A DNA stretch of 58,050 bases from a virus (taxonomy: Duplodnaviria; Caudoviricetes), in IMG/VR virus record IMGVR_UViG_3300035670_000246, positions 1-58,050 of that record. The stretch is one strand, 5' to 3'. The stretch's first letter is position 1; each line of letters opens with the position of its first letter. A model generated the notes under the pieces. That model ran no database searches and was not told the origin of the DNA. It was given only the letters and a program-made list of their open reading frames with translations. Of this stretch, positions 7,002-56,813 are shown in pieces. The translations under genes were made by a program, and so were the position numbers.

Positions 7002-7802
7002 ATGGGAACGCCGATTGATTTCTACACGGTCAGCACGCCTAACCCGGCTGAGATCGCGTTCTACATCACGGTGGACGCCAACCAGCTCAACCCGGGCAAC
7101 GTGCCTGCGGTGGGAACTCCTTACAAACGGATCAACAACTCGTTCGTCAACCCGAGGGTCAATGAGTGCGGTTTCGGTGACTACGTGTACACCTACATGG
7201 CCCCCTCAGGCGACTCGTTGCAGTTGTTCTTCGGCAAGCCCAAGACCCAGGTCGAGAAGAACACGCCGTTTCGCACGGTGTACTCGACCAGGTATTACCC
7301 GTGGCCCCCGGTGCTGGAGGACCTGCGCATCCTCAAGACGACGGCCTTCCCGCAGTCGGTCTGGAACGGCACTGCCACGGTCACAGCGCCGCGCTACTTC
7401 CCGCGCTACCGCTACCGCCCGACGCCGAGCATCAACTCGGTCATCAAGATCGAGCAGTTCCTTGCGCCCACGCCCTACGACGGCCAGGCGTTGATCCACC
7501 CGCAGCCGACGCCCACGGAGGTCAGCGGCTACTATCTCGGCATGTCGGTCAGCTTCCCCAAGTGCCTGCACCCCAAGATCGTGCTCGATGAGAACATCCC
7601 GGGCGCGGTCGTGGTGGAGGGCCAGGGCACCGTGGACGTGCCGCGCACCAACAGCTCCACCAAGCAGGTGTTCCCGGCGACCAACTTCCTCGACTGGGCT
7701 CCTTTCATCCTGGAGGATCAGGTGCAGCCGGTCAGCGGCTTGTTCCTGCGCGAACGTGTCACCATCTACCCGCCGTTCCGGCCGCAGCCGATTGAGAGAT
7801 GA
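7002..7802 (+). CDS. Putative virion (tail-associated) protein
   Basis: 266-aa Pro/Tyr-rich ORF co-oriented with the upstream structural-like gene. Confidence 0.55.
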   Translation: MGTPIDFYTVSTPNPAEIAFYITVDANQLNPGNVPAVGTPYKRINNSFVNPRVNECGFGDYVYTYMAPSGDSLQLFFGKPKTQVEKNTPFRTVYSTRYYPWPPVLEDLRILKTTAFPQSVWNGTATVTAPRYFPRYRYRPTPSINSVIKIEQFLAPTPYDGQALIHPQPTPTEVSGYYLGMSVSFPKCLHPKIVLDENIPGAVVVEGQGTVDVPRTNSSTKQVFPATNFLDWAPFILEDQVQPVSGLFLRERVTIYPPFRPQPIER

Positions 7803-7897
7803 AACCCGCTCGCCACGGCTCCTCGCTTCGCTCGATGAAACCCGCTCGCCACGGCTCCTCGCTTCGCTCGATGAAACCCGCTCGCTTCGCTCGATGA
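7798..7897 (+). repeat. 36-bp tandem repeat (2 full copies + 1 internally deleted) forming a 32-aa mini-ORF
   Basis: GATGAAACCCGCTCGCCACGGCTCCTCGCTTCGCTC at 7798 and 7834, shortened copy at 7870. Confidence 0.9.
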
Positions 7898-8067
7898 TCA
7901 CAACTCAAAACGGCTCATACGAAGGCGACACCCCGTTTTTCAACCGCCCGTGGTTGTGGGGCCAGGATGGCATCCAGACCTACCGTGACCCCAACACCGG
8001 GAGCACCATGCTGAACGTCCCCACCGACCCCGTGGTCAGGTTCGACAATTTTACCTACATCGGATAA
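7894..8067 (+). CDS. Small hypothetical protein (57 aa)
   Basis: MITTQNGSYEGDTPFFNRPW...; ATGA-coupled to the mini-ORF. Confidence 0.55.
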   Translation: MITTQNGSYEGDTPFFNRPWLWGQDGIQTYRDPNTGSTMLNVPTDPVVRFDNFTYIG

Positions 8068-8820: not shown

Positions 8821-9464
8821 AAGCCCTCATCATCCACACCCCGGACATCGTCGAGATGGCGCGTGAGTGCGCCACCCGCGTGGCTCATTTCACCAACCTC
8901 AGGCCGGAATTGGTCGAGGCGGACAGTCGTTTCACGGCCCACCGGCTCAAGCTGGAGGCGTTCCAGTGGCAAAGCGAGCCTGTGTGGCTGGTTGATGCCG
9001 ACCTGTGGTTCATCGCGCCCTGCGTGCTGCCGGTGCTTTCAGGTCCTGTGATCTACGGCAACCCTGACAACTCCATCCTCAATCGGGAACGCTACGCATT
9101 CACCAAGGTCGAGATCAGTCACGCGTTCAACACGTCCTTGATCGGACTGGACCCGACGTGTCGCGAGGTGCGTGAGGCGCTGGAGGACGCGTCAGCCATG
9201 CAAGCTGAGCGGTACGGCCCTGAACCCGTCGAGGACGAGAAGTTCTTCAACATTGCCGTCTCGCGTCCAGGTCTCACCCTGTGCCGCCTGAGCACGCGTT
9301 TCAACTGGTGCGGCATCGATCCACCGGCCAGCACGGTCGCCGTGCATGCGGCGTCCCGCCGCGACAAGATGGCGTGGCTGCGGGAGGTGGTGGACGATCA
9401 AGCTCTGCCAGCAAGCCCTGGCGGAGCGCAACAACGAAGCGAAGGAGATTCAAGCCATGAGTGA
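8817..9464 (+). CDS. Glycosyltransferase (GT-A fold); current C-terminus supplied by an attC arm
   Basis: LVDADLW (DxD), FNTS, EDEKFFN, VHAAS; paralogous layout to 8104-8820. Confidence 0.7.
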   Translation: MKALIIHTPDIVEMARECATRVAHFTNLRPELVEADSRFTAHRLKLEAFQWQSEPVWLVDADLWFIAPCVLPVLSGPVIYGNPDNSILNRERYAFTKVEISHAFNTSLIGLDPTCREVREALEDASAMQAERYGPEPVEDEKFFNIAVSRPGLTLCRLSTRFNWCGIDPPASTVAVHAASRRDKMAWLREVVDDQALPASPGGAQQRSEGDSSHE

Positions 9465-9517
9465 CATTGATACGACAACAAGCGGGGCGCAGCTTGGCGG
9501 CAGCGTTTTTGTTCGCC
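9389..9517 (-). repeat. attC-like site (terminal, non-canonical R' G|TCCACC)
   Basis: Minus strand GGCGAAC AAAAAC GCTGCCGCCAAGC ... GCTGGCAGAGC TTGATC GTCCACC. Confidence 0.55.
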
Positions 9518-9828
9518 TTGGTCCCGGCTGTGGACTCAGTTACGCCGATCAAGCTAAATCCCTCGGTCTAAGAGTTGGGGACACTATCGTCGGGAAAGAG
9601 CATTACGGCGGCGGATCGTGGAGTGAGGCTGAGCTAACATTGCTGTGGATGGGATCGCAAATCTGCGTCTGGCGGCATCGCTGGCGCAACTCGCGCTTTC
9701 CTAACATCTGGAATGGTGGAGGCGAGGCCGCGAACTGGAGCCTGACCGACCGCGACTGGCATAAGGCGAACGCACAAGGTCTGGCGCAGATGCCAGCGCC
9801 GAAAGACTCCGAATCCATAACCGACTAA
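9457..9828 (+). CDS. Cassette-borne hypothetical protein (Trp-rich)
   Basis: Starts in the loop of attC 9389-9517 and stops in the loop of attC 9765-9866. Confidence 0.65.
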   Translation: MSDIDTTTSGAQLGGSVFVRLGPGCGLSYADQAKSLGLRVGDTIVGKEHYGGGSWSEAELTLLWMGSQICVWRHRWRNSRFPNIWNGGGEAANWSLTDRDWHKANAQGLAQMPAPKDSESITD

Positions 9829-9866
9829 CCCGCTGGCATCTGTTGCCAGCACCGACTTTGTTCGCC
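9765..9866 (-). repeat. attC-like site
   Basis: GGCGAAC ... CTGGCGCAGATGCCAGCG / CGCTGGCATCTGTTGCCAG ... GTTCGCC imperfect palindrome with bulges. Confidence 0.8.
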
Positions 9867-10340
9867 ATGTTGAATGACTCGCTATACAGCTCCGAAAAAA
9901 TGGATTGGGAAACGCCCGATCACCTCTTCCTTGGCCTTGATGCCGAGTTCGCGTTCACGCTCGACGTGGCCGCGAGCAAAGAAAACGCCAAGTGCCGCCG
10001 ATACTTCACGGCGGAGGATGACGGACTGAGCCAACCGTGGGAGGGAACCTGCTGGATGAATCCACCATACGGGCGGGAAGTGGGCGATTGGATGCGCAAA
10101 GCCGTAGAGGAGTCCAAGCGCGGCGTTCTCACCGTGGCCTTGGTGCCAGCACGAACGGATACGCGCTGGTGGCATGAGACGGCGATGAAGCATGAAATCC
10201 GATTCCTCGCACGCCGCCTGTCCTTCAAGGGATCTGGCAACAAGGCTCCTTTCCCGTGTGCCGTCGTGGTGATTCGCCCGCCGCACGCCGCAATCCTTTC
10301 TCTGGCGAACACGGATTATCCCGACCAAAATTCCAGGTAG
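9867..10340 (+). CDS. Phage-type DNA N6-adenine methyltransferase (cassette-borne)
   Basis: WETP, FTLDVAAS..NAKC, DGLSQPW, WMNPPY, LVPARTDTRWW, APFP. Confidence 0.9.
   Translation: MLNDSLYSSEKMDWETPDHLFLGLDAEFAFTLDVAASKENAKCRRYFTAEDDGLSQPWEGTCWMNPPYGREVGDWMRKAVEESKRGVLTVALVPARTDTRWWHETAMKHEIRFLARRLSFKGSGNKAPFPCAVVVIRPPHAAILSLANTDYPDQNSR
10310..10326 (-). other. attI/attG-like cassette target half-site
   Basis: Minus strand GGTCGGGATAATCCGTG|TT; 12/17 identical to 56791-56807. Confidence 0.55.
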
Positions 10341-10365
10341 CACCCCCCCCAAACCGGAACAACCT

Positions 10366-10923
10366 ATGAATGACCAACCCATCTGGACCAACGACTGGGC
10401 CACTTACCACTACACCAACTGGAAAAAGTTCCTTGGCAAGTTCCGGGATGTCCCGGCAATCGGCCTGGAGATCGGGTCATGCGAGGGCAGGTCATCCTGC
10501 TTCTTTGTCCAGAACATTCTCACGCACGCGGAGTCCAGGCTGATCTGCGTTGATCCGTGGGTGATGCCGGGGACTGAGGAGAGGTTCCAGCACAACATCG
10601 ACGTGCTTGGGTGTCGCCCCAAGATGGAGGTCCACAAGACGTTCAGCGACAGGTTCGACCTGAGCAACCACGCCAAGGTCGATTTTGTTTATGTTGATGG
10701 CTGCCACACGGCCCCGGCCACCCTCAAGGATGGAGTCCGTGCATGGATCGCGCTCAAGACGGGAGGGATCATGATCTTCGATGACGTGATGTGGCGGATC
10801 AACGAGCTTCCCCGGGTGGCATGCCCCAAGCTGGCGATTGACGCGTTTCTCACCGTGTTTGAGAAGGAAATGAGGGTTTTGCACGTCGGCAGTCAGGCAA
10901 TCGTTGAAAAGATTTCGCCTTGA
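10366..10923 (+). CDS. Class I SAM-dependent methyltransferase (Methyltransf_24-like)
   Basis: LEIGSCEGRSS, CVDPW, DFVYVDGCH, LKTGGIMIFDD. Confidence 0.85.
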   Translation: MNDQPIWTNDWATYHYTNWKKFLGKFRDVPAIGLEIGSCEGRSSCFFVQNILTHAESRLICVDPWVMPGTEERFQHNIDVLGCRPKMEVHKTFSDRFDLSNHAKVDFVYVDGCHTAPATLKDGVRAWIALKTGGIMIFDDVMWRINELPRVACPKLAIDAFLTVFEKEMRVLHVGSQAIVEKISP

Positions 10924-13036: not shown

Positions 13037-13957
13037 ATGCCGCCCCCTTCAGTCACCCCAGCGATGCGTGAGTTCGGTTTTGGAGCCAAGCGCGTGCTCC
13101 AGCCTTACCAGAACCCGGAGGCCAAGGACTTCTTCCGTGCTTTCCGCCCCTCGCAGGAAGAACTGGACAACCCGTTCCTGTCGTCCCCCTATGCCCGGCA
13201 GCAAGACGCCCTGGTGGCGCAGGAGGACGTGGTCAACCAGCAGCTTGCGGCCGAGCAGGCGCAGATGATGGCGGACCAGCGCAAGGCCAGCCGTCTGGAG
13301 CAAGTCTATGAGGCTGAAGACCTCGCCAACGAGGCGCTGGCCTCCGGTGTGCCGCCCGACGAGGTGATCCAGCGGTTTCCCCGGCTGGCGCAGTCTCCGA
13401 GTTTCAGCAATTACATGCAGCAGGCACGCGAGGTGCGCCCGGCGCAGAAGACGCTGGCTCCGCATTTTCGTCAAAGCCTCAAGAGCCCGACGGCACGAAC
13501 CTACTTTGACCGTCATTTTCAAACCACAGGAGACGCCACGCAGGCTTACGATTTGGCGCAGGCGGACGAAGAGCAGGACGACATCCGGCTCGAACTCGTA
13601 AAGAACGGAGTCCCCGTTGAGATAGCTGAGGCCAAAGTCTGGACCCCATTGGCGGCACAAGCGGCCATTCAGCAGTTCAGCCGAAAAACGGAGGACGACC
13701 CGAACGAACTGGCCTACAAGAAGACGGTGGACAAGTATTTCGCCGATCTGGCGAACTCTGCTGCCATGGCTATTGATGGAGAAGAAAAGAGCACGGAGCA
13801 GATCAAGGCGGACCTTGACCGCATCCGCAGTATTTTCTATCCGCAGGCCGCGCCAGCGCCGGTCTCAACGGTCAAGCCACCCACTGCCACTAAAGCCACG
13901 TCCAAGGTCAAATCCCTGGCGGAACGCTACGGCATCCTCAAACCTAAACAGCCATGA
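13037..13957 (+). CDS. Putative internal virion/ejection protein
   Basis: Ala/Gln-rich helical ORF coupled to the giant gene. Confidence 0.5.
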   Translation: MPPPSVTPAMREFGFGAKRVLQPYQNPEAKDFFRAFRPSQEELDNPFLSSPYARQQDALVAQEDVVNQQLAAEQAQMMADQRKASRLEQVYEAEDLANEALASGVPPDEVIQRFPRLAQSPSFSNYMQQAREVRPAQKTLAPHFRQSLKSPTARTYFDRHFQTTGDATQAYDLAQADEEQDDIRLELVKNGVPVEIAEAKVWTPLAAQAAIQQFSRKTEDDPNELAYKKTVDKYFADLANSAAMAIDGEEKSTEQIKADLDRIRSIFYPQAAPAPVSTVKPPTATKATSKVKSLAERYGILKPKQP

Positions 13958-16900
13958 GCCCTTGGGAAGACATCGAGGCTGATCCCGAGTTTGGCACGCT
14001 GACTCCTCAGGAGAAGGTGTCCCTGTTCGACGATTGGCACAAGAACACCGTCAACAGCTTTGCTGAGATCGACCCGGAAGAAGTGGACCTTCAAGGTCTC
14101 AAAGGATTCATGGCGTCAGGTCAGGTTAAGCGCCGGGAGCTTCTTGGGGAACCTGTGGACCCGGACCAGATCACCCAGCAGTACCTGACGGGGTTGACGG
14201 AGCGCAACAAATCCCAGAAGCAGATGCTGGCGGATTACGACGCTTTGGAGAAGGCCCGGTTTAACTTGCAAGACGCAACTCTCCAGAAAGGGGTTACCTC
14301 CGCAGGAGATCGGGGCATGATCATCAGCCCCAAAGTTCAAGAGATTCTCGGTAAACCAAAGCAACAAGCGGAAAAGGAGTTTGAAATCGCTCGCAGCAAG
14401 TTCACCCCCGAACTGGAGCAGCAGGCCCGGGAGGCACGTGAGGCCATGCGTGGAGAACGCCCGGTGGCAGTTCTCGGCAGCGACATCTACACCGACCCGT
14501 CGCTGACACTGGACAAAGAGGAGTACCGCAGAGCGGTAAACGGAACCTCAGCTTCGCCAGAAGCCAAGATGCTCGCGTTGGCGGATTTCTCTTCTCGCCG
14601 GGACGAGTTCGCGAAAAACGCTCTTCGTGCGTTTCGAGTTGCGGGTGAGGCACCGATTCCAGGCATGGAGTCTTTCGCGTCGTGGGAGGCGAAGCAACCT
14701 GAAGAGACACGTGTCAAATCTCCAGAAAGCAAAGCCCTCGAATACCTCCGTCAGATGCGTGGACGAGAAGGTTACCGTAAACTGATCAGCGCCATTGGCA
14801 CCGGGGCTGTTCAAGGTGGGGCGGACGTGGCATCTCAGGCCGTTGGCACGGCTGCCATGATCACCGGAGACCGAGGGCTTGCTCAAAAAGCGGGGGAAGT
14901 TCAAAAAGGCGCGGAAGCGTTGTCTGAAGTCCAAAAGCTCGAAGGAGACATGTCTGCCACAGGTGCCACCACGGCTGGCGGCGTGGCACGTCTCGGAGTT
15001 GGCATGGCTCCCGCAATCGGAGCAGGCCTTCTCACCGGAGGCAGTCTTCCGGCTGCCGCGTTGGCGGCTGGAGCACAGACCGCAGGCGCTCAATTCCCAT
15101 CGACGTACAACGCGATGCTGGAACAGGGGAAAAGTGAAGAGGAGGCACTACGTGCCTCTCGCGGAGCCGCCCTCATGTCCGGGGCCGTGACTTCAGCATT
15201 GACCGCACTTGGGGGAACGTCTGGCGTGGAAGCGTTGATCCGCCGCAGCGGTGAAGGGTTTGCCCGTGGGCGCGTTGCCTCCATCCTGCTTGGGTCAATC
15301 AAAGAAATACCCGAAGAATTGGCTGATGAGGCTGCCAGTCAGGTTATTGAGTCGAGCCTGACCAACCCGGACAAGCCGGTGTCCCAAGTGGTCGATGAGT
15401 TTCTTGGGCAGGCCCCCGACCTTGCCTTGCAAGTCGGACTCCTTGGAGGAGCTGGTGAAGCCTTCTCTTCTGGAGGAAAGACACCGCCCACATCCCAGCC
15501 CACGGAAGAAACCGAAGAGCCGGTGGTTCTTGGGCGCACGGTGCAGCAGGTGCTCGACGAAGCCGACGCCGTCAGCGCCCGGGCAGTCGTGCAAGCTGAG
15601 GAGGCAGGGTCGCCTTTGCTGGCGCAGGCCATCGCAGAACAGACGGCTGCCACGGTTCCCGAGGCTCAAGCGGAAACCGCAGAGCCAAGCGGACAGACGG
15701 AACCAGAGGTAGCCGCCGAAATCCTTCCCGAAAAATCTCCCGCAGTCAACGCCGTTACCACAGAAGAACAAGAAACCCTCCCCCTGTTGCCACAGGAGGA
15801 GGGTCAGGCCGGTGAGTCGCGAACTCCGGCAGAAGGGTCGATTCCTGCCGTTACCGCAGAGAAAATGCCTGATACTTCAGAAGTGTCAAGTGTTGCCCCT
15901 TCTGCCGGAGTTGAGCGTAATCGGGCGTTGATCGCTCAAGCCGCAACCACAAACGCCGGACGTGCCCAGGTGTCAGCCAACGAGTACATCCAGAAAGCGG
16001 CAGCAGCACCGCAGCCGAACCTTCCTCCAATCACCACGCAAGGTGGAGAGGTGGAAGTCCAAGCCGCGCCTGAGCGTACGGTCGAACAGAATCCGATTGC
16101 CGCGATGGCCGCACAAGCCGCCGCCAAAGCCCGAGGAGAGGTCAAGGAAGTCAGCGCCCCTCTGGCACGGATGTTACAGCCTTCTCCGCCGTCGCCGTCA
16201 GCTCCGTCTGGCTTGGGCGCAGGTGCCGCTACAACTCCGCAAGGAGCCATTGAAAGTCCCACAGCACCAGCGACGGCGGAGGACATCGCCGACCGCATCA
16301 ACGCGTCGTCCTTGTCTCCTGCGACGACCTATCCATCTCTGGTGCAGGACATCAAGAGTCTCACGGAAGGCAGGCCAGCACGGTTGCAGGAAGTCGCCGA
16401 CGCCCTGTTCGAGCAACCCATGCAGCGCCCGACTGCCGAGAAAATCGCACGCCGCCTGCTCGACGAAAATGCCGCCGAACGCGAGGTCACGGCTTCGCGT
16501 GATCGCCGGGTCGCCCGTGAGATGATCGGCGAGGAAGAGAACCAGCGTGGCGGCGAAGCGCCGGTCAGCGATGACAAGGCCCCCTTGGAAAAGGGCGAGT
16601 TCGTCGCGTGGCAGGACGAGAACGGCGCGATGCAGGAAGGCGTTCTCACCAAGATCAGCGCCGGTCGAAACAACCTTGGCGAACCGATGTCGGAGGTTAC
16701 CTTGGAAACCAGCGAGGTCGTGCAGGTGCCACGGCGAGAACTGAGGCCTATGGCGTCCATGAGGCCGGATGCGCGTGATGCCGAATACCTCGCCGCCGTT
16801 GAAGCTGGCGACATGGCGAAGGCGCAGCGGATGGTGGATGAGGCGGCGAAGGCGGCGGGGTATAACGTGGGGCCGGTGTATCATCACGGTGGGTTCGACA

Positions 16901-19900
16901 TCCAGGAAAACGCCGTCCCAGACACATCTCGTGGCTTTCACATGGGCACCCGGCAAGCCGCTGAAGAGAGGGCTTTTGGCAAACCTGTCGATGATTTTAT
17001 AGCGGAGGCCGAAGTAACGTACGATGAAGGCCTTGGTGCCTGGTTTTGGTCATCACAAGGAGTGGACAGTTACGACGTGGTCGATGAGGACGGGTTCAGT
17101 AGCGAAGAGAGGGCTCGCCGCAGCTTAGAAGAATATGCCTCCCAAGAGGATTTCAGTGGTTCTGACATCGAAGACCTTGGTAAACTGACCGCTGCGTATT
17201 TGAGGGTGTCTAACCCGTTGGTAGTGGCTGACCAAAAAGCGGACTGGGACGGCGTGATTAAGCGAGCGGTGTCTGGCGGCTATGACACCGTGCAGTATCG
17301 CAATGACTTCGAGGATAAAGGGTCAACTTCATACATAGCCCTGCAAGAAGGGCAGATCAAATCCGCCGATCCAGTCACCTACGACGACGCGGGGAACGTG
17401 ATCCCGCTCTCACAGCGTTTCCAGACGACCTCGCCGGACATCCGTTTCAGCAAGAAACCGACGAACCCAGTTCGCGACGCCCGTGCCGCAGCGATCAAGT
17501 CACTGCGCGGTCACCTCGGAGAAGAAGTCTCGGTCGGTGTGTCCGCCGTGGACGGCATCAACGCGATGACCAGCCTTCAAGGTGCCGTGCCTGGAGTGCA
17601 GAAGGCATGGATCGGCACGCGTGAGGATTTTCTTGCGGATGAATCCCTCGGCCGTGCCTTCCCCGGCATCCGCCGCGAACTGGAGAGCCCGCGAGGAGAT
17701 CAACTGGAAGGTCTGTTCGACGGCGGCCGGGCGTTCGTGTTCATCAACAACGTCGGCGTTTACGAAGGCGATGTCCGTGTCGCCAAGGAACAGTCCGAAC
17801 TGACTGGAGAAGAGGTTACTCCGCAACAGGCAGCGGTGCAGCGCGTCATCACTCATGAAGGGCTGGTGCATCGCGGGTTCTATGCTCTCGACAAGGACAC
17901 CCGGCGTGCGCTGTTCCAGTGGGGCGCTCAGAACATCTACGAAGCCGAGATGGACGCGATGGCCGAGGAATACGGCTACGCTGACGACTGGCGCACCAAC
18001 GAACGGTCCCGCGAGTGGATCATGGAGGAGATTCTGGCGAAGAAGATCGAGCGCCTCAAGGCCCCGCCGAAGTCAGGCCCGCTCAAGGCCCTGTGGGACA
18101 TCCTTGTCTCGTTGTGGCGAAAGCTCACGGGCAGCGTGCAGGAGGTCACCCTCAAGGACATCCAGGATGTCGCCAAGGTGCTGCGCACCGCGTTGGAGCT
18201 GTCCGAGAACAACGTCGAGACGCGCAACGGGATGCCGATCCGGGTGGAGGTAGCCAAAGGTTCCCTCCGCCCCCGTTTCACCAGCCCGCTTGACGCCACG
18301 CTCTCGGACACTGCGAAGGCCCTGCGCCTCATGCGCGACGGCCCACCCGCAACCCCTGTGGACCTGCAACAAGCCTACGCCACGGCCGTGCGTGGCAAGT
18401 CCTCGGCCATGGTGTCGCTCGACGACCTGTTCGCCGCCGCCAAGGCATCCGCTCCGTCCCTGACCGAGGCTGAATTCGGACAGCAGGTGCAGAACCTCTA
18501 CAACGACAACGGAGCCTACGTGGAGTCCGCCGAGTCGCCTGCTGTGATGAAGCAGTCCGCCGACCGCTACAACGTCCGCTCGTCTCAAGGGATTCCGGCG
18601 AGTTACGTGATGATCCTGGAGACCGGACGCCCGATGGCGTCCATGAGGCCGGAGACACCCTTCTACTCGAAACTGTCCCGCGTCGTATCGGATAAGATGC
18701 CGAATCGCGCCGATGTCGCGACCATCAAGGGCATCATCACGAACCCGCAGACAGGCATCAAGGCAGAGGAACTGAAGTGGAGCGGGATCGTGCCGTGGCT
18801 TGATGCTCAAGAGGGCATGGTCACGAAACAGGCCGTGCTCGACTACCTCGCCAGCGACGGCGCGGTGAGGCTGGAGGAGGTGCGGATGGGTGGACAAGAT
18901 CGAACCATCAAACCGGGCGCTGTTTTTGGTGATTACCGCGTGATTGATGATGCTGGCGACTTGGCTCTTGAAAGAGTGGACGATGGTTCTTTTGTTCGTT
19001 CTGGCACCGCTGAACAACTAGCGGATTACTTGGAAATAGGCACTGGCGAAAGTGGAGCAGGAACCAAATACGCCCAATACCAACTACCCGGCAGCGAGAA
19101 CTATCGCGAGGTGGTGCTGGCGATGCCGGTTGAAAGACGTTCGATGACAGAAGCAGCGGCTGTTTATTACAACACTTTTGTTCGTCGTGGGGGCGAGCCT
19201 CAATGGGCTGAATTGCCAGAAAGTCGGCGCTTGCAGATCATCACGGAAACGCCCGCAGAAGCATTCAACGAACCACCTGAATACACCTCCAGCCACTTCC
19301 CCGACGTGCCGAACTACGTCGCGCACATGCGGCTGAACGACCGCACGGACGCCGAGGGGCAGCCGGGGACGTTCATCGAGGAAATCCAGTCCGATCGCCA
19401 TCAGCAGGGACGGGAGAAGGGGTATCAGGGACAACGTGACCGCTCTCTAAGCGTGAAATGGGATGCCAATCTTCAAACCTGGAAAGTTCTCAACGAAGAG
19501 GGTCGAATGGTTGGGGGATTCCAAACCGAAGAAGCGGCAAAAGCCGCCGCTAATAAGTTTGCGTCAGGCATCCCCGACGCCCCTTTCCGAACAACCTGGC
19601 CGCTGCAAATGTTCAAGCGCGCCCTCGCGGACGCGGTGGCGGCGGGCAAGCAGTGGATCGGCTGGACGACCGGCGAGACGCAGGCGGAGCGGTATGATTT
19701 GAGCAGGCAGGTGGACAAGATCGAAGTTTACCCTTTGGAAAAATCACCGGGCATGGTGGCTATCACAGCCTACAAAGATGGCCGCCAAGCCATTCGGCAG
19801 GATGTCGCACGTGGTAGCATGGCGGATTTGATCGGCAAAGAAGCTGCTCAAAAAGCCGAGCAACAGATTCAACAGAACAACTTTGCCACCCTCGAAGGAG

Positions 19901-22900
19901 ACGGCCTCAAAGTCGGCGGCGAGGGCATGAAGGGCTTTTACGACACCATCCTGCCGAAGGAAATCGGCAAGTATGTGAAACAGTGGGGAGCTGGCGTGGT
20001 GAAGGGGGAAGCAGTGACTCGAAAGGAATCGTTTGAAGAGTCTCCTATTTCTTTTGATGATTCCCCTGTTCTTGTGCGCCAACAAACCACCCCCATCTGG
20101 CGCGTGGACATCACGCCGTCGATGCGCGAGTCGATCCAGAAGGAGGGCCAGCCTAAATTCAGCCTCCGTCCTGACGCCGCACGACGCCTCAACCGTGCCG
20201 TCTGGGAGGCTCAGGAAGCCTCCGGCCCGATCAAGGATTCCGAGCAGACGCCACTCAAGGACTACCCGGTGCATTCGTTCGCGCAACAGTCCGGTAAGAG
20301 CCGCACGGACGTGGCCATTCAGGTCGTGGACGAGCTGCTCAAGTCTGGTGTGCCCGTCAACGGACTTGTCGATGCCATCAACAGCTACGAGCTGCACCGC
20401 CAGCTTGGCATCGAGCGCGATCCTGACATGCTCGGCATCTTGCTGGCCGAGGCCATGCTCCGGGGCGACCCCAACGCGTTCAAGGCGCATCAAGATATTC
20501 GTTCCCGCATTGGACGTGCTCAAGGGACTGGAGCCATCCTGCACAAGGACCCGAGGTACCAACACCTGTTCTTGCTCGAAGGCATGAAGGACGAGCAAAT
20601 GCAGCAGGCCCGCGACATCCTCAACGCCAACGCGCCGATGAACGCGGACGAGGTGAGCCGGTTGGACGCGGAGGCGGGGCGGACGGCTGCGGCAGAGGAT
20701 GCCGGGGCAGTCCAAGATGCCCTGGAAGAAGACCTTCTGGAGATCGGTGAGAAAGGACTTTCTCCCAAAGAGCGCACGCTGTGGGAGAAGGCAAAGTATC
20801 TTGTTGCCCGTATCGGTTACCTCCTAAAACTCGGATCAGGAGATGCCAAGCCATCACTACGTTTTGAGTTTCCTGACTCCGAGAAGCAGGCCCTCTCAAA
20901 ACTCTCGGCGGACGAGAGGCAGAAAGAGTTGCAGAGGACGCGTGCAGAACTTCGCGCCACTTTGGGCGAATTGCTCGGGCAGCGCAAGCCACGTAAAGTG
21001 GCTGGCGGTGTCGAGACCATCGAAGGTGACCTTACCACCCGTGCGGTTGCTGACATGGTCCAACGCATGCAGGAACGCCTCAACATCCCGGTGGACACTG
21101 CCACGGCGATTGACGCCTTGACGACCACAGGAAACCTCAAAGGTCAGTTTGAAAACTTCATCTCCGACTCGCTGATCTCAAAAGTGAAGTCGGCCATGAC
21201 GCCGAAGCAGGCCCCGGTCAAAAACCTGAACAGCGTCATCAGGCAGATCACCAGCATCCTTGCGGACAACCTCAACTTGCCAAAGGCGCAGACGGCCAAA
21301 GAGTCTTTGGGGGAACGTGCTCTTGACACCTTCGGACGTGTCCGGTCCAATGAACAGATGATCCGGGAAGCGTGGGAACGTTCCCGTGAAGGCATCCGGC
21401 AGTATCTTGCCGAACGCGCCGTCGAGGGCAAGGAAGGTCTGACCGAGGAAGAGGCCGCAGAGATTGAAGAGGCGGTTGATGCACAGCTTGACGCCATCGC
21501 GTCCTCGGTGCCAGCTCGCATGTGGGCGCGTGGCCAGGCTTACAGCCTGATCCGGGACGCTCTGGAAGGCTCCAAATTTGGCACCAACGAGGACATCTTG
21601 CGTGACCCGCAAGCTGCTTTGAAAACAGTCCAGGACCTCCTCAACTCCGAGGTGGGCAAGATCGGCAACGTGGACCCGGCACGCTGGGACAGTGACCAAG
21701 CCTACATTGTGGCGGCGTTCAATTCGTTGGTGGCCGATCTCAAGGAGCGCAAGGCCAAAGCGGAGGCACGTCGGGCAGGCAAGACCCGCTCAGGGTTGAT
21801 GACTGGATCGGATAAAAAGACTCTGACATCGCTTATCGAGCAGGCTCGCAAACGCTCTGGGGACAAGGCTCCGCTCCTGCCTGACAGCGCCACCTGGACG
21901 AAGATTTTCAGCGGGTCGCCGCAGTCGCAGGAGGCGAAGGCGAGAGAGATGCTGGACTACATGAAGGCGGACCCGCTGCTCGCGAATCTCACGGCTGCCG
22001 AGCAACAGCAGCTTGCGGACATGTTCGCACGTCGCTGGGAGAAGAAGCGCAAAGAACTCCTGGAGGCCAAAGTCGCTTCCATCCTCAAAGCGCGAAACGC
22101 CACCCCCAAAGGCAAGAACGCCGCCAAGGACGCGGTGCCGAAGTTCATCCAGGCGATCAACCGTGGTGAGCTGACCAACGATGTCATTGCCGAGGAGATC
22201 GCAGAAAAGTTTGGTTTCGAGAAACTCACCGAGGGCGAGAAGAAAACGCTCGAACGGTTGTCCCGGGAACTCCAGGAACCCAACCTTCCGCAGCACGAGA
22301 AAACCGCCAAGATCGACGAGATGGCGAAGATCATCGCGAAGAAGACCCGCATGTCGATGGCTGAGATTTTGTCAGCGTGGTGGGTGACCTCCGTGCTCTC
22401 CGGGCCGCGCACAGCCTTCACCATCGGGCTTGCCGCCTCCAACGGTGCCTTCGAGGTGCTGGGGCACGCGGTGTCCACGGTGCTCAACGCCAACTGGAAC
22501 GGTCGTCGTGCGGAGGGTCTCGCCGCCACAGGTCAGGCGCTCACCAACTACTTCAAGTCGTGGCCGCGTGCCATCCAGCTCGCGTGGCAGTACGTCCTGA
22601 CAGGTGACAAGAAATTGCTCTCCGCAATGGACCCGGCCTACTCGCAGTTCTTTGAGACAGGTCGCAACAACCCGCTGTCGGTGGGATGGAGACTGTCGCA
22701 GTCCAAAAACCCCGTGGCTCGTGCCACCGGCCGGTTCATGCATTTCTTCGAGAAATTGCTCTCCGCGCTCGACTTGTTCACGGCGACCACCACGCGTCAC
22801 GGCATGCTTCCGATCTCCTACTACCTGAACCAGAAGGTGTACGACAAGGCACGTGCCGCGAGTGAGACCGATCTGGCAAACTACCGGAAGAAGGTGATCG

Positions 22901-24312
22901 ACTTGTGGTGGGGAGGCAAAGAGCCGACGACCGGAGCCGAGCAGGCCTTGGTGACACGCCAGTCTATCAACATGATGGAGGAGCAGCTCGCCAAGTACGC
23001 CAACGTTCTTGAAGACGCCGGGTTCGCTGCCGCACAGGCTGCCATGACACTGACGCCGGAAGGCCTTGGGGGTCAGTTCTATCAGGCGGTGCGCAGCGTC
23101 GCCAACAAGGCGGAAAGGTCAGCAGAGAAGGCGGTTCGTGAAGCTGAAAGGCTGGACGGCAAGGACCACGGCCCCATTGAACGCAACACGCGCAAGGCAC
23201 TGGCCTATCTGTACCGTTTCCTCGCCTACCAGATGCTCAACGTCGCAGGTCTGCGCTTCGCCCGGTTCGCGGGCAACAAACTCAACCAGTCCCTCGGGTT
23301 CATTCCAGGCCTCGGACTGTTGCGCAAGTTCGAGAAAGACTACGCGGGTCCGATGAAGAACCAGGCGATCATGCGCAACCAAGCCATCGGAGCCATGATG
23401 GCGATGGTCGGATACAACGTCCTCAAGGCCATCGGCGATGAACCTGACGACGACAAGCGTGGCTGGGGCATCGAAGGCTCATGGAAGAACCTCACGCCAG
23501 ACCAGATCAAGCAGCTTCAGGCCGCAGGTCGCAAGCAGTACACCATCCACATCGGCGAACAGTCCTACAACTATGCCAACTGGCCGGTGTCCTCGGTGCT
23601 CGCCGCCATCGGCACCATGGCTGACCGCATCAAATACTCCCCGGACAAGTGGAAGGAAACCTCGACCCTCGACAAGATCGCAACGGGCGCGTGGGCGGCT
23701 TCCACAGCCACCATGGACGCCTCCTCGCTGTCACAACTGGCGGAGGTGTTCGGCAGCAACATTCACACCCGTGACCCGGTCGAGGCCAGCGCAAAATGGG
23801 CGTCCCGGGTGTTCGGCAACTACGCTGGCGGCATGATCCCACGCGTCTTCAAGGACGCCGACATGATCCTGGACGGCAAGATGGGCAAGTACGACGGCTG
23901 GGAAAACTTCGGGAAGGAGATTCCCGTCTATCGTCGCTACGTCGGTGGTCCGTTGCTCGACATCTTCGGCAAACAGGTCGAAGTGTCACGCACCCCGTGG
24001 AGCCGTGAGTTTCAGGTGCAGCCGCCCGAGCGTGAATATCGCCTGCTGGGCCAGCTCAACAGCAACGACTTGTGGCTGACACCCGCCAATCCAGGCGGAC
24101 GCCGCGTAGGCCGTGGCAAACGGTCCCGCGAGATGACCGACGCCGAGCAGAAGCGTTACGTGACCCTCGTGGGCGACGGCTACCGTAAAGTTGTGTTGAA
24201 GTTTGGCGACCGTCTCGCCAAGATGGACCGCGAAGGGGCCAAAGATTTACTCGGCAAGCTGACCGCGCAGGTCCGTGACCGTGCCGAACGACAAGCCGTG
24301 ACACAACAATGA
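13954..24312 (+). CDS. Large polyvalent (ejected) protein with ART-PolyVal-like and metallopeptidase-like domains
   Basis: 3452 aa; VYH..GFHMGT..QIKSADPVTYDDAGNVIPLSQRF; THEGLVH..MEEILA; FYSKL..GIKAEELKW..FIEEIQSD..GMKGFYD segments. Confidence 0.8.
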   Translation: MSPWEDIEADPEFGTLTPQEKVSLFDDWHKNTVNSFAEIDPEEVDLQGLKGFMASGQVKRRELLGEPVDPDQITQQYLTGLTERNKSQKQMLADYDALEKARFNLQDATLQKGVTSAGDRGMIISPKVQEILGKPKQQAEKEFEIARSKFTPELEQQAREAREAMRGERPVAVLGSDIYTDPSLTLDKEEYRRAVNGTSASPEAKMLALADFSSRRDEFAKNALRAFRVAGEAPIPGMESFASWEAKQPEETRVKSPESKALEYLRQMRGREGYRKLISAIGTGAVQGGADVASQAVGTAAMITGDRGLAQKAGEVQKGAEALSEVQKLEGDMSATGATTAGGVARLGVGMAPAIGAGLLTGGSLPAAALAAGAQTAGAQFPSTYNAMLEQGKSEEEALRASRGAALMSGAVTSALTALGGTSGVEALIRRSGEGFARGRVASILLGSIKEIPEELADEAASQVIESSLTNPDKPVSQVVDEFLGQAPDLALQVGLLGGAGEAFSSGGKTPPTSQPTEETEEPVVLGRTVQQVLDEADAVSARAVVQAEEAGSPLLAQAIAEQTAATVPEAQAETAEPSGQTEPEVAAEILPEKSPAVNAVTTEEQETLPLLPQEEGQAGESRTPAEGSIPAVTAEKMPDTSEVSSVAPSAGVERNRALIAQAATTNAGRAQVSANEYIQKAAAAPQPNLPPITTQGGEVEVQAAPERTVEQNPIAAMAAQAAAKARGEVKEVSAPLARMLQPSPPSPSAPSGLGAGAATTPQGAIESPTAPATAEDIADRINASSLSPATTYPSLVQDIKSLTEGRPARLQEVADALFEQPMQRPTAEKIARRLLDENAAEREVTASRDRRVAREMIGEEENQRGGEAPVSDDKAPLEKGEFVAWQDENGAMQEGVLTKISAGRNNLGEPMSEVTLETSEVVQVPRRELRPMASMRPDARDAEYLAAVEAGDMAKAQRMVDEAAKAAGYNVGPVYHHGGFDIQENAVPDTSRGFHMGTRQAAEERAFGKPVDDFIAEAEVTYDEGLGAWFWSSQGVDSYDVVDEDGFSSEERARRSLEEYASQEDFSGSDIEDLGKLTAAYLRVSNPLVVADQKADWDGVIKRAVSGGYDTVQYRNDFEDKGSTSYIALQEGQIKSADPVTYDDAGNVIPLSQRFQTTSPDIRFSKKPTNPVRDARAAAIKSLRGHLGEEVSVGVSAVDGINAMTSLQGAVPGVQKAWIGTREDFLADESLGRAFPGIRRELESPRGDQLEGLFDGGRAFVFINNVGVYEGDVRVAKEQSELTGEEVTPQQAAVQRVITHEGLVHRGFYALDKDTRRALFQWGAQNIYEAEMDAMAEEYGYADDWRTNERSREWIMEEILAKKIERLKAPPKSGPLKALWDILVSLWRKLTGSVQEVTLKDIQDVAKVLRTALELSENNVETRNGMPIRVEVAKGSLRPRFTSPLDATLSDTAKALRLMRDGPPATPVDLQQAYATAVRGKSSAMVSLDDLFAAAKASAPSLTEAEFGQQVQNLYNDNGAYVESAESPAVMKQSADRYNVRSSQGIPASYVMILETGRPMASMRPETPFYSKLSRVVSDKMPNRADVATIKGIITNPQTGIKAEELKWSGIVPWLDAQEGMVTKQAVLDYLASDGAVRLEEVRMGGQDRTIKPGAVFGDYRVIDDAGDLALERVDDGSFVRSGTAEQLADYLEIGTGESGAGTKYAQYQLPGSENYREVVLAMPVERRSMTEAAAVYYNTFVRRGGEPQWAELPESRRLQIITETPAEAFNEPPEYTSSHFPDVPNYVAHMRLNDRTDAEGQPGTFIEEIQSDRHQQGREKGYQGQRDRSLSVKWDANLQTWKVLNEEGRMVGGFQTEEAAKAAANKFASGIPDAPFRTTWPLQMFKRALADAVAAGKQWIGWTTGETQAERYDLSRQVDKIEVYPLEKSPGMVAITAYKDGRQAIRQDVARGSMADLIGKEAAQKAEQQIQQNNFATLEGDGLKVGGEGMKGFYDTILPKEIGKYVKQWGAGVVKGEAVTRKESFEESPISFDDSPVLVRQQTTPIWRVDITPSMRESIQKEGQPKFSLRPDAARRLNRAVWEAQEASGPIKDSEQTPLKDYPVHSFAQQSGKSRTDVAIQVVDELLKSGVPVNGLVDAINSYELHRQLGIERDPDMLGILLAEAMLRGDPNAFKAHQDIRSRIGRAQGTGAILHKDPRYQHLFLLEGMKDEQMQQARDILNANAPMNADEVSRLDAEAGRTAAAEDAGAVQDALEEDLLEIGEKGLSPKERTLWEKAKYLVARIGYLLKLGSGDAKPSLRFEFPDSEKQALSKLSADERQKELQRTRAELRATLGELLGQRKPRKVAGGVETIEGDLTTRAVADMVQRMQERLNIPVDTATAIDALTTTGNLKGQFENFISDSLISKVKSAMTPKQAPVKNLNSVIRQITSILADNLNLPKAQTAKESLGERALDTFGRVRSNEQMIREAWERSREGIRQYLAERAVEGKEGLTEEEAAEIEEAVDAQLDAIASSVPARMWARGQAYSLIRDALEGSKFGTNEDILRDPQAALKTVQDLLNSEVGKIGNVDPARWDSDQAYIVAAFNSLVADLKERKAKAEARRAGKTRSGLMTGSDKKTLTSLIEQARKRSGDKAPLLPDSATWTKIFSGSPQSQEAKAREMLDYMKADPLLANLTAAEQQQLADMFARRWEKKRKELLEAKVASILKARNATPKGKNAAKDAVPKFIQAINRGELTNDVIAEEIAEKFGFEKLTEGEKKTLERLSRELQEPNLPQHEKTAKIDEMAKIIAKKTRMSMAEILSAWWVTSVLSGPRTAFTIGLAASNGAFEVLGHAVSTVLNANWNGRRAEGLAATGQALTNYFKSWPRAIQLAWQYVLTGDKKLLSAMDPAYSQFFETGRNNPLSVGWRLSQSKNPVARATGRFMHFFEKLLSALDLFTATTTRHGMLPISYYLNQKVYDKARAASETDLANYRKKVIDLWWGGKEPTTGAEQALVTRQSINMMEEQLAKYANVLEDAGFAAAQAAMTLTPEGLGGQFYQAVRSVANKAERSAEKAVREAERLDGKDHGPIERNTRKALAYLYRFLAYQMLNVAGLRFARFAGNKLNQSLGFIPGLGLLRKFEKDYAGPMKNQAIMRNQAIGAMMAMVGYNVLKAIGDEPDDDKRGWGIEGSWKNLTPDQIKQLQAAGRKQYTIHIGEQSYNYANWPVSSVLAAIGTMADRIKYSPDKWKETSTLDKIATGAWAASTATMDASSLSQLAEVFGSNIHTRDPVEASAKWASRVFGNYAGGMIPRVFKDADMILDGKMGKYDGWENFGKEIPVYRRYVGGPLLDIFGKQVEVSRTPWSREFQVQPPEREYRLLGQLNSNDLWLTPANPGGRRVGRGKRSREMTDAEQKRYVTLVGDGYRKVVLKFGDRLAKMDREGAKDLLGKLTAQVRDRAERQAVTQQ

Positions 24313-25127: not shown

Positions 25128-26372
25128 TTAGATGTCCACGTCGTCTGCGGCGGCATCGGCGGCATCCGCAGGAACTTCGACCGTCTCAGGCTCAGGTTCT
25201 CCGACGCTGTCACCACGGCTGATCCAGCCCGGGGTGGACACCTTGAAGCCGAAGCCAAGGACTTCCTCTTTCAGTTTGGCAAGCTGGTTCGGGCCACGCA
25301 CGCCGATGTCTTTGGCGAGTTCGTTCATGCGGTAGGAACCGACCCGCAGCTTGCGCTCGATCATGTCCACGAGGAAAGGTTTTTCCTGCGGTGGTTGAGG
25401 CTTGGGTGGGATGACTTCGGTCTGGACAACAGGCGGTTCGGACTCAGGTGCCGGGGCAACGGTTTCCACGGGTTCGAGGGGCTCAGGTGCCGGGGCTGAC
25501 TCAATCACGGGTTCGAGGGGCTCAGGTGCCGGGGCTGACTCAATCACGGGTTCCGGTGTCTTCTCAACGACCTGCGTTTTCGCCACGGCCTTCACTTCCC
25601 CCATCACGATCTGGCGCAGGGAGTCGTCCTTGCACCCGTGGACAAGCACGGCAGTGGCAGGCACGAGTCCACCACGACAGCGCACCAGTTTGTCAGTGGG
25701 CCGCGCCGAGCACTTGATCCCTTCCGGGGTGGCTTCGTAACAGCCAGTATTCCACATGTCGGCGATCAGGTTGCTGTTGGCCCAGCCAAGGGTTTTGACA
25801 CCGCCACGGATGTAAGTATCGAAGTTCTCCTTCGGGTTGCTGTGAGGCGGCATGCCGAGGTCCTGGATCAACGGACGGATGGCTTCATCCGTGTGCATGG
25901 TCGGCGGGTACACGCCCACGGCCATCATGTATTCCTCCCCGGCCCGGTATTCGAGCTTGCCGTTCACGATGAAAGGCAGCGGCACGATGTTGCCGTAGCA
26001 GAGACGCCCCTTGGCAAAGTAGTCGTGCTGGATCAGGTTGAGCCAGTCAGGCTTGATCGGCAGTGAGTCCAGTTCCAGCCACAAGAACGGTTCCTTGTTC
26101 TGTAAACGTCCAAGGTTGAACACCGCGCCGAAGAACAGGATGCCGCCGTCCATGGGCATGCCGAACTCAGGTTCGTAGAGCGCCTGGGCCACCGTGACCT
26201 CGCGCATGTGCGGCTTCAGCCGTGCAGACTGCTCGGTGACCTCGACGATGGTGGCCGGGGTGGCGAAGAAGAAGGCCGAGTGATCGGTCAACCCGCCAAA
26301 GTGGATCAGGGTGTCGATGAAGGACGGCAGGCGGGACACGTCGTGTCGGGAGACGGGGATGGTGAGTTTCAT
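25128..26372 (-). CDS. Glycosyltransferase-like protein with Pro/Glu linker and possible C-terminal HTH
   Basis: FLWLELDS DxD-like motif, VLVHGCKD; RMNELAKDIGV C-terminal segment. Confidence 0.55.
   Translation of the reverse strand: MKLTIPVSRHDVSRLPSFIDTLIHFGGLTDHSAFFFATPATIVEVTEQSARLKPHMREVTVAQALYEPEFGMPMDGGILFFGAVFNLGRLQNKEPFLWLELDSLPIKPDWLNLIQHDYFAKGRLCYGNIVPLPFIVNGKLEYRAGEEYMMAVGVYPPTMHTDEAIRPLIQDLGMPPHSNPKENFDTYIRGGVKTLGWANSNLIADMWNTGCYEATPEGIKCSARPTDKLVRCRGGLVPATAVLVHGCKDDSLRQIVMGEVKAVAKTQVVEKTPEPVIESAPAPEPLEPVIESAPAPEPLEPVETVAPAPESEPPVVQTEVIPPKPQPPQEKPFLVDMIERKLRVGSYRMNELAKDIGVRGPNQLAKLKEEVLGFGFKVSTPGWISRGDSVGEPEPETVEVPADAADAAADDVDI
25467..25553. repeat. 39-bp coding tandem repeat (2 copies + partial)
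   Basis: CACGGGTTCGAGGGGCTCAGGTGCCGGGGCTGACTCAAT x2; encodes EPVIESAPAPEPL. Confidence 0.9.
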
Positions 26373-27401: not shown

Positions 27402-27484
27402 TTTAGTTTGTCCTCCGCGCTGGGTGTGATAAATCAAGCGCAAACCTGAGCACGCTTGCTACCGATTTACGCAAACGACGCCGC

Positions 27485-27617
27485 AGCGAACAAATCGCGG
27501 CAGGATCAACCGCCTTGGCGGTCTGGACTTCGGCGGCTTCTGTCTTCGATGGAGGCGGCATGGTTGACGTGGGGTAATTGTGGTTATTCGGCGGTGCCTG
27601 CGCTTGGGTCGTTCGGC
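27485..27617 (+). repeat. attC-like site
   Basis: AGCGAAC AAATC GCGGCAGGATCAACCGCC ... GGCGGTGCCTGCGC TTGGGTC GTTCGGC. Confidence 0.75.
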
Positions 27618-27829
27618 GTAGCTCGACATGCCTTCCACGAATCCCACCACCAAAAGAGCGGGTCGATCAGCCTGTGAATTGGATCAGTTGAATCATCCAC
27701 GCAGAGCGCAGCCGGACTCACAAACAGCAGCACGATCAGGTATGGAGGTCCTGCGATGAGAAGCAGCGCAAGCAGCCCAACACGCCGAACAAAACGGATG
27801 CAGGCGACGGCTCGAAAAGGATTTGTCAT
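27584..27829 (-). CDS. Cassette-borne small membrane protein
   Basis: Hydrophobic stretch; starts and stops inside flanking attC-like sites; cassette spans 27612-27871. Confidence 0.6.
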   Translation of the reverse strand: MTNPFRAVACIRFVRRVGLLALLLIAGPPYLIVLLFVSPAALCVDDSTDPIHRLIDPLFWWWDSWKACRATPNDPSAGTAE

Positions 27830-27877
27830 GGTGTCGAAAGTTTGTTGCTCGCCGTCGCCTGATCCGAGTCGTTCGGT
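27784..27877 (+). repeat. attC-like site (most canonical example)
   Basis: GCCGAAC AAAA CGGATGCAGGCGACGGC ... GCCGTCGCCTGATCCG AGTC GTTCGGT; single extrahelical G. Confidence 0.85.
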
Positions 27878-27912
27878 GTGCCATATAGTGAATCGCCAAA
27901 CGTGGAAGCACG

Positions 27913-29112: not shown

Positions 29113-29696
29113 AGTGCTTTCTGTGCCCACATTTCGAGTGAGAATTTGCGACGGTTGAGGTGCTGGGCCATCTCCCAGAAAGAAGGGACGCCGTAGTCAC
29201 CGACGTTTCCCTTTCCGACGTTGTGGACGAGGTGGGAAGGAAACCCCGCACGGACGAAGTGCGCCCACAAGGAGTCTTCCGTGAATATCTGGGCGTGCTG
29301 ATCGAACCAGAGGGCGGCCTCGAACCACGTCGGGATCGGGTTCGGCGGGTCACTCACCTCAAAGAGTTCCGGCCAGTTTTCATTGCGGTCGTCCGGGTAC
29401 ACGCTGCGGAAGTAGCTGGCGTCGGGAACGCTGACCAGGAAAACGCCCCCAGGCTTGAGCACACGCAGCACTTCGCGCATCACCTTCACGGCCTCACGGC
29501 AGTCCATGTGCTCCAGGACGTGGCTGCACAGACACCCGTCGAAAGTGTTGTCGTCGAACGGCAGTCTCTGTCGCAGGTCGTGACGGACAAAATTGGGCTC
29601 GTTGATCTCGTGACCACCACCTTCCCAGTTGTCCACGTTGATCCACTTGGAATCTTGGGGCCTTGTGCCTCCGCAGCCTAGGTTGATGATTTTCAC
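29109..29696 (-). CDS. Class I SAM-dependent methyltransferase
   Basis: INLGCGG, LPFDDNTFD, SHVLEH, RVLKPGG, SVPD; GTGA-coupled start. Confidence 0.85.
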   Translation of the reverse strand: MKIINLGCGGTRPQDSKWINVDNWEGGGHEINEPNFVRHDLRQRLPFDDNTFDGCLCSHVLEHMDCREAVKVMREVLRVLKPGGVFLVSVPDASYFRSVYPDDRNENWPELFEVSDPPNPIPTWFEAALWFDQHAQIFTEDSLWAHFVRAGFPSHLVHNVGKGNVGDYGVPSFWEMAQHLNRRKFSLEMWAQKAL

Positions 29697-32493: not shown

Positions 32494-32543
32494 TTCCGTG
32501 ACATATAGCCTTGACGGGCCGCCGTGGTCAAGCATAATTCGGC

Positions 32544-55968: not shown

Positions 55969-55974
55969 AAAAAG

Positions 55975-56807: not shown

Positions 56808-56813
56808 TTCGGG

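Follow-up and report, generated by a model that had tools for sequence, protein, structure and literature searches.

A recombinase-less phage carries the attC repeat of Verrucomicrobiota integrons and two candidate cassette insertion points

Introduction

The Dam methyltransferase gene of a virus of the Caudoviricetes (IMG/VR record IMGVR_UViG_3300035670_000246) closes with a stretch which, read on the opposite strand, resembles a second stretch elsewhere in the same genome; in both places the likeness runs up to a G|TT, the crossover letters of integron recombination. A preliminary description took the two 17-mers for a shared attI-like motif heading two independent cassette arrays, that is, for the double-stranded target of a recombinase, and suggested that the motif could identify the integron of the host. 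This raises the question whether the two places are points at which integron cassettes enter a phage genome and, if so, whose enzyme would act there. The window analysed here is the whole virus record, a linear stretch of 58,050 nt with a CheckV completeness of 91%; the features discussed are collected in Table 1.

Table 1. Positions of the two sites, their boxes and the attC-family copies in the window
Feature	Positions	Strand	Remarks
Site 1, 17-mer	10310-10326	-	GGTCGGGATAATCCGTG, then TT; crossover between 10310 and 10309
Site 2, 17-mer	56791-56807	+	GGTCAGCAGAATCGGAG, then TT
Site 1, box G|TTCGCC	10304-10310	-	7/7 complement of the copy b inner box GGCGAAC (minus strand, 9866 to 9860)
Site 2, box G|TTCGGGC	56807-56814	+	GTTCGGGC; the only plus-strand GTTCG in 55812-57616 (1.8 kb)
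Locus-1 cassette-like unit	9771-10309	-	539 nt; most of copy b, with the Dam gene on the opposite (bottom) strand
Head module downstream of site 2	56756-56798	-	reads TGCTGACCAGCGGTTAGCATAGCAAC... on this strand and reaches the ATG at 56755
attC-family copy a	9386-9520	+	R2 21.3 bits, E 3.6e-4 window-wide; outside the training set; decayed
attC-family copy b	9762-9869	+ (bottom strand)	R2 61.4 bits; in the training set
attC-family copy c	27781-27880	- (bottom strand)	R2 97.5 bits; in the training set
attC-family copy d	57020-57119	-	R2 33.8 bits, E 4e-8 window-wide; outside the training set; decayed

Results

Gene content of the phage

The gene at 9867-10340 (+) encodes a Dam-type N6-adenine DNA methyltransferase, which matches PF05869 (E 6.5e-29, residues 17-145 of 165) and phrog_111 (E 9.8e-55). 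A replication block on the minus strand comprises a primase, an exonuclease, a Gp2.5-like protein, a DNA polymerase, a helicase and an endonuclease VII. Six-frame searches of the whole 58,050-nt record with the tyrosine recombinase family PF00589 and the serine recombinase family PF00239 gave zero matches at E<=1. The phage being without a recombinase, we infer that any recombinase acting on the two sites must be that of the host. Rfam and tRNA scans of the window returned no matches, nor did a megablast of the window against phage records.

Methyltransferase-type genes are unusually many (9867-10923 and 27913-32562): besides Dam there are a Methyltransf_24 protein and three more matches to methyltransferase PHROGs, and a weak radical-SAM match within the same regions reaches 29.4 bits, just below the cut-off of 29.5 bits. 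A 3,452-aa ORF (13954-24312) matches no Pfam family and shows a weak PHROG 'endolysin' stretch in residues 1776-1926 only. Ahead of the first ORF, the left end of the record holds a very AT-rich core of 99 nt, which has an 11-nt palindrome of its own (153-188) and is bracketed by a perfect 28-nt inverted repeat (93-247); an origin, a promoter or a packaging region may be sited here. The long spacer at 2049-2276 contains GTTAACGTG three times as well as a C-rich run and has the look of a regulatory region or operator. Two tandem repeats consist of two perfect copies each, one of 36 nt (7786-7916, overlapping the end of ORF 7002-7802) and one of 39 nt (25451-25544). Perfect inverted repeats of 14 nt (56089-56139, inside a Cro/CI-type HTH gene) and 10 nt (57400-57447, inside ORF 57074-57535) fold significantly (z to -5.2) and are without AAC/GTT ends.

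Four copies of an attC-like hairpin

A generic scan for hairpins closed by AAC...GTT, followed by folding against shuffles, brought out only 9765-9866, 27784-27877 and a weaker candidate at 32694-32798. The first folds far better than its shuffles (RNA z -7.0, DNA z -5.6, 0/200 shuffles), as does the second (z -4.4 and -5.7). Copies b and c share one architecture and are homologous (global alignment z 6.0, 0/1,000 shuffles). A covariance model (R1) was built from these two phage copies, and a second one (R2) from 64 host copies together with the same two; copies a and d took no part in the training. In copy b, the basal stem is formed by 7 bp (GGCGAAC/GTTCGCC). Beyond it lie an unpaired spacer of 6 nt and a stem whose 3' arm carries two bulged bases, T-N6-C; after these come 3 bp, the spacer and the basal stem in turn, and the Dam ATG (9867) is reached at once after the repeat. 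Copy c has arms nearly identical to the host consensus. Copy d keeps a loop near that consensus on damaged stems and folds no better than shuffles (z +1.1).

Copies b and c display the traits of attC hairpins (a length of ~57-150 nt, AAC...GTT ends, an unpaired central spacer, two or three extrahelical bases on one side and a terminal part that varies), copy c with a single bulge only, and the bottom-strand layout of copy b with bulges, spacer and AAC/GTT stem is the one laid out in the accessible portions of PMC3053210 and PMC11641012. Their boxes, GGCGAAC/GTTCGCC and GCCGAAC/GTTCGGT, do not conform to the canonical RYYYAAC/GTTRRRY, from which the former departs at two of the four degenerate positions; the host family described below has the same non-canonical letters. 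GTTRRRY is given as the core in the available text of PMC9892861, and the letters behind the two G|TT sites, CGCC and CGGG, do not fit it either. A canonical scan of the window (RYYYAAC...GTTRRRY) yielded 6 pairs as compared to 7.1 +/- 4.0 in shuffles, none of them at copies b or c, and CGAAC...GTTCG pairs were not enriched (12, with 16 +/- 4.7 in shuffles). Three more candidates for attC, 57556-57625 (E ~0.9, fold z -2.35), 57768-57872 and 27482-27620 (E 0.58), fell short of significance and were rejected.

We also observed that each of the four copies holds the start codon of a bottom-strand ORF in its loop or directly after its last base (9457, 27829, 57077 and 9867); the N terminus of the ORF at 56814-57077 is coded by the conserved attC loop sequence.

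The repeat belongs to Verrucomicrobiota chromosomal integrons

The pattern of positions shared by copies b and c matched at least 120 stretches in a bacterial genome collection, many of them in arrays, and every named record among these is from the Verrucomicrobiota, including Verrucomicrobiaceae, Prosthecobacter, Brevifollis, Akkermansiaceae and Chthoniobacter. In one host locus (L150), R1 finds 13 same-strand copies within 8 kb, spaced 400-700 bp, while 12 of the 14 ORFs of at least 120 aa between them lie on the opposite (top) strand. The modelled strand, plus at locus 1 (around copies a and b) and minus both at 27.8 kb and at locus 2 (around copy d), is the attC bottom strand.

Of seven host-clade genomes searched, two have the integron integrase IntI (TIGR02249) at scores above the curated cut-off: G002 (394.9 bits) and G004 (289.5 bits, or 349.5 with neighbours). 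In G004, intI lies ~0.8 kb from the first attC and starts ~170 nt from a junction, GTGAATGATCTTCAATG|TTCGGGC..., which is followed by a cassette ORF and then by an attC with arms nearly identical to those of phage copy c. A second G004 integron has the same 17-mer before a different cassette (|TTCGCCTAACA); since the 17-mer is identical before different first cassettes, it defines a true attI junction. Two further attI junctions were read in G002 (ATTGTGGCTAAACAACG|) and G006 (GTTAACCATCTTCAATG|), and the first cassettes of the hosts begin with G|TTCGGGC or G|TTCGCC. The two G004 integrons lie at L252 ~16026 and L253 4640, the intI of L252 appearing interrupted and being read in two frames, and the third genome, G006 (L250), has a homologous attI (...ATCTTCAATG|TT).

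Because it stands in same-strand arrays with opposite-strand ORFs and adjoining IntI genes, the phage repeat is the attC of Verrucomicrobiota chromosomal integrons. The integron setting that had been proposed for both sites is real in this sense, as the phage repeats match arrays beside IntI in this phylum. That Verrucomicrobia encode integrons is stated in the accessible part of PMC4889954.

The bare likeness of the two 17-mers is within chance for this genome

The letters and positions of both 17-mers proved exact, and so did their identity at 12 of 17 positions with the same spacing and no shift, which rises to 16/21 when the TTCG that follows is included. Their description as non-palindromic is nearly right, except for a small palindrome in site 1 (GGAT-A-ATCC) and an 8-bp hairpin (56780-56798) that overlaps site 2. 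On the plus strand, site 1 codes for part of the last 10 codons of the Dam ORF, past the conserved domain; site 2 lies in a 58-nt spacer that separates the minus-strand ORFs 56814-57077 and 56378-56755. The flanks of both sites fold no better than shuffles (z -0.69 and +0.58), and with GTT at the cut and no hairpin of their own, both are of the double-stranded G|WT type known from attG.

In the window, 16 places agree with each 17-mer at 12/17 or better, the 17-mer itself being counted, and some of them reach 13/17. Across the whole genome, 980 of 1,682,695 pairs of GTT-anchored 17-mers are alike at 12/17, and 1,115 of the 1,835 GTT sites have such a partner; a partner at 16/21 or better is found for 320/1,835. 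Among the 127 antisense GTT sites no more than 30 nt from a stop codon, 8 of 8,001 pairs reach 12/17. The chance of this agreement is ~6e-4 per pair, a figure that holds only if both places were fixed beforehand. When the two ends of the window were aligned to each other with blastn, many chance alignments scored equal to the site pair. Likeness at 12/17 is, on its own, not beyond chance for this genome. As the bare likeness is unremarkable, the question became whether each of the two places is marked independently.

The motif was also sought in other viruses. A motif search of IMG/VR gave 96 matches, all of them single, and the head pattern ACCAGCGGTTAGCATARCAAC gave no match there. At up to two mismatches the motif was found in 0/26 loci related at the protein level, and a match with three mismatches in L018 falls inside the ORF of a small membrane protein. 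The relatives of Dam are ~50% identical and without the tail, those of the primase <=49% identical, and two other protein queries for relatives of the phage gave no matches.

Both sites stand where the first G|TT of a cassette is expected

Independent marking was found in the surroundings of the sites. Each 17-mer lies one cassette length 5' of an attC copy, in terms of the attC top strand, so that at both sites, as at an attI, a G|TT crossover is followed by a cassette ending in attC. The box of site 1 complements the inner box of the neighbouring attC in full (Table 1). At locus 2 the inner box of copy d, GACCGAAC (57022-57029, +), complements GTTCGGTC, which agrees with the site 2 box at 7/8 positions; the seven letters after the G of that box are identical to those opening the first cassette of G004 host integron 1. 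That both sites are placed where a cassette's first G|TT would be is supported. Of the claim that they head two arrays one half stands: locus 1 has two same-strand attC copies, 9386-9520 and 9762-9869, whereas locus 2 has the single decayed copy at 57020-57119.

Without the unit 9771-10309, the upstream ORF stays in frame and runs into the present Dam tail (...WHKAN|TDYPDQNSR, then a stop), while Dam read round the unit would end in the attC loop (...SLAN|AQGLAQMPAPKDSESITD, then a stop). Judged by these reading frames, the locus-1 unit behaves like an inserted circle. At locus 2, the site 2 box is followed by a unit of ~300 nt that ends in the decayed copy d. The genes of the phage lie on the attC bottom strand, the reverse of the cassettes of the hosts, and the distal junction of locus 1, near 9392, has no clean G|TT. 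Neither the 874 kb of host loci nor the five host-clade genomes gave a match to the Dam query; family searches with the antisense ORF of Dam and with the ORFs of both strands of the locus-2 unit (56808-57109) likewise returned no match.

Related phages differ between the attC end and site 1

Contigs of X5, X6, X8 and X11, from four other metagenomes (wastewater, soil, estuary and freshwater) of four studies, are 90-99% alike to the window and were compared with it across locus 1; the evidence comes from assembled contigs, not from reads, only loose contig ends and pieces were counted, and uncovered parts of 9474-10277 were left out. All four match the window from 8000 up to 9387, 9393, 9393 or 9397, no more than 10 nt from where copy a has its outer end, and continue in unlike sequence. 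The match resumes at 10314 (X6), 10315 (X11), 10359 (X8) and 10366 (X5) and extends to 12000. The right breaks of X6 and X11 are 4-5 nt from the site-1 crossover, X11 having a CGAAC box of its own at the same place, and pieces of copy-b-type attC with other flanks occur in X5 and X11. In related phages, then, the cassette region changes and, in two of the four, the backbone resumes next to the predicted crossover. By eye, the 30 letters directly before 10366 in X5 are 24/30 identical to the site-2 head (56798 to 56769), with an exact run of 16 letters; such agreement greatly exceeds what chance would give in a window of 58 kb.

The motif is unlike the attI of the hosts

The true attI junctions of G004 (both integrons) and of G002 share, by eye, 6-8 of 17 letters with sites 1 and 2, and the junction of G006 looks unlike the motif, again by eye and with no count made. 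The host loci examined, 874 kb in all, contain 2,690 sites anchored by GTTCG, and the 21-mer pattern matched none of them within three mismatches. In five host-clade genomes the motif has 15 matches at two mismatches, as compared to 5 for a reversed control, and none of the 15 lies at the contig and position of an intI match. Going by the letters of these junctions, the two heads are not a copy of the host attI, and the suggested resemblance to it is not borne out. Being unlike attI and absent from the host junctions, the motif is therefore unusable for finding the host integron, which the preliminary description had hoped it could identify; the attC repeat does so instead. As for the proposal that the motif is the target of a recombinase, its setting at cassette junctions holds, the enzyme would have to come from the host, and the likeness to attI falls away.

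Enrichment of the motif at array starts was another expectation that failed: it is absent from 15 candidate heads of 6 arrays on five other viral contigs bearing this attC family; the best of these heads has 5 of the 12 specified positions wrong, and this counts against a general motif. These five records gave no match to the DNA polymerase of the phage. L259, a viral contig 57,705 nt long, 100% complete and bounded by direct terminal repeats, has, at 2443 and upstream of two attC copies, GTTAATGATCCGTACTG before G|TTCGCC. By eye this is 12/17 identical to the true G004 attI junction, and the L259 phage may carry a remnant of a host-type attI. Separately, site 2 starts with GGTCAGCAG (56791-56799), which on the opposite strand reads CTGCTGACC; ~35 nt from the crossover, on the other strand, the attI regions of both G004 and G006 have CTGCTGACA, an 8/9 match to the start of site 2 that was seen post hoc.

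Discussion

Two probable docking places for cassettes

Taking the results together, the two 17-mers on balance probably form the invariant flank, on the side of the phage backbone, of two places (array heads) at which an integrase of the host inserts cassettes of the integron type. During infection, the host integron integrase would recombine the folded attC of circular cassettes with the double-stranded heads, so that cassettes would enter there in the same way as at attI or at secondary (attG) sites. Common ancestry of a head module would then account for the likeness of the two heads, possibly together with what the integrase tolerates. Against a reading as array heads stand locus 2, with its one decayed and non-folding attC, and the relatives X5 and X8, which resume at 10366 and 10359 and not at the crossover.

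The likeness of the heads could also have a cause other than recombination. The cassette boundaries would be real, and what the heads share would be a regulatory or 5'-untranslated module before the next backbone gene, the cassettes merely sitting just upstream of it. We consider this unlikely, even though the motifs end at similar distances, 39 nt (site 1) and 35 nt (site 2), before the next start codons, 10366 and 56755, in the same relative orientation, and although in X5 the head similar to that of site 2 extends as far as the ATG at 10366. Moreover, attG sites of known integrases need little beyond GWT, according to the available text of bioRxiv 10.1101/2022.09.11.507474. Yet no sigma-70-like promoter was called at either site; the five extra motif matches at two mismatches are about the number expected by chance, none of them 30-40 nt before another gene; and site 1 is parted from the next gene by a mere 25-nt gap after the Dam stop. 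A reading of the 17-mers as promoters was rejected, with no promoter called and no recurrence before other genes.

Ordinary phage mosaicism, through homologous or illegitimate recombination, would dispense with cassettes altogether, the attC copies being host-derived passengers and the G|TT positions and the 12/17 agreement a coincidence. The chance statistics of the likeness agree with it, and so do the inverted genes, the distal end of locus 1 without a clean G|TT, the lack of a cargo homologue in the host loci searched and the two of four relatives that break at 10359 and 10366, a gene start. What makes it improbable is that the left breaks of the four relatives all fall at most 10 nt from the outer end of copy a, that two of the right breaks are 4-5 nt from the predicted crossover, one of them with its own CGAAC box, that the box of site 1 complements the attC inner box at 7/7 positions, and that the frame is kept across the locus-1 unit. 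Finally, that the 17-mers are leftover 3' ends (L' box, spacer and R' box) of further decayed attC copies, alike only by family likeness, is very improbable: by eye both align to the end of the attC top strand (GTCG...ATCCG...G|TTCG), given one insertion and a 3-nt deletion, but against it speak alignments to the 3' ends of attC from the host and from copies c and b, in which the sites rank 701st to 1,696th of 1,834 GTT sites, their 130-nt flanks, for which the best p against six family members is 0.046 in 12 tests and not significant, and half-site HMMs from 76 host copies, which hit neither site, R2 giving no match at either site as well.

Returning to host-driven insertion at two heads, we tentatively entertain a wider reading, which is rather doubtful as a whole. 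The phage lineage would keep integron platforms without an integrase of their own, and the integrase of the host's chromosomal integron, acting in trans during infection, would insert and remove attC-bearing cassettes, such as the one with the Dam methylase, at the two docking heads. With the attC bottom strand lying on the sense strand of the phage, phage transcription would read the cassettes, and the attC copies could let the phage genome recombine with the attI of the host.

Comparison with known integron elements

A CALIN, as defined in the available part of PMC4889954, consists of two or more attC sites that share a strand, are spaced by under 4 kb and have no intI. Locus 1, with its two tandem attC copies, both on the plus strand, therefore falls under this definition, the first copy being decayed. 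In the CALIN of phages treated in the accessible portion of PMC9892861, attC sites and cassette-like units likewise occur in phages without intI, and that of Polaribacter phage P12002L has a DNA methyltransferase as cargo, as here. Compared with the description given there, the present phage differs in that its attC copies are one conserved repeat family of Verrucomicrobiota chromosomal integrons, that they were found with a covariance model of their own and not with IntegronFinder, that the genes lie on the attC bottom strand, and that natural variants point to a turnover of content at a fixed head.

The repeat of the host clade resembles the attC of sedentary chromosomal integrons in being a highly conserved imperfect hairpin of ~100 nt that recurs every 400-700 bp on one strand beside IntI. 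AAC...GTT ends, an unpaired spacer and bulged bases are common to both, the repeats of Vibrio cholerae being an example of such attC; it differs in having GGCGAAC/GTTCGCC in place of RYYYAAC/GTTRRRY and in its Verrucomicrobiota hosts. With an integron attI the phage sites share a double-stranded site at the head of an array, a G|TT crossover and a constant 5' side. They depart from it in that no intI adjoins them, in being unlike the attI junctions of four host-clade integrons and, for site 1, in lying inside a coding tail. Like the two sites, attG as presented in the available text of bioRxiv 10.1101/2022.09.11.507474 is double-stranded, lies away from any integron and has G|WT at its single cut; its cassettes are brought in by an integrase whose gene is located elsewhere, as is proposed here. 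The only features which the same text gives for IntI1-3 in E. coli are GWT and weak hotspot motifs. In contrast to such sites, the two phage heads share 12/17 letters and one locus appears to have been used repeatedly, and the reconstructed right flanks (CTTA and CGAC) do not show the CRGM motif at +6 to +9.

What the finding means

Phage attC sites have been known before as static features found by software. Here, a recombinase-less phage carries the chromosomal-integron repeat of its presumed host clade, and its relatives differ between the attC end and a fixed head. The 17-mer motif does not serve the use first proposed for it; it is the attC repeat that identifies the host clade, and for a virus that could not otherwise be placed it predicts a host among the Verrucomicrobiota, in the family Verrucomicrobiaceae and its relatives. 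As double-stranded targets that a non-model integron integrase would accept, the two heads are concrete candidates. Since the variation lies between the attC end and a fixed head, the traffic of cassettes between phage and integron becomes directly testable.
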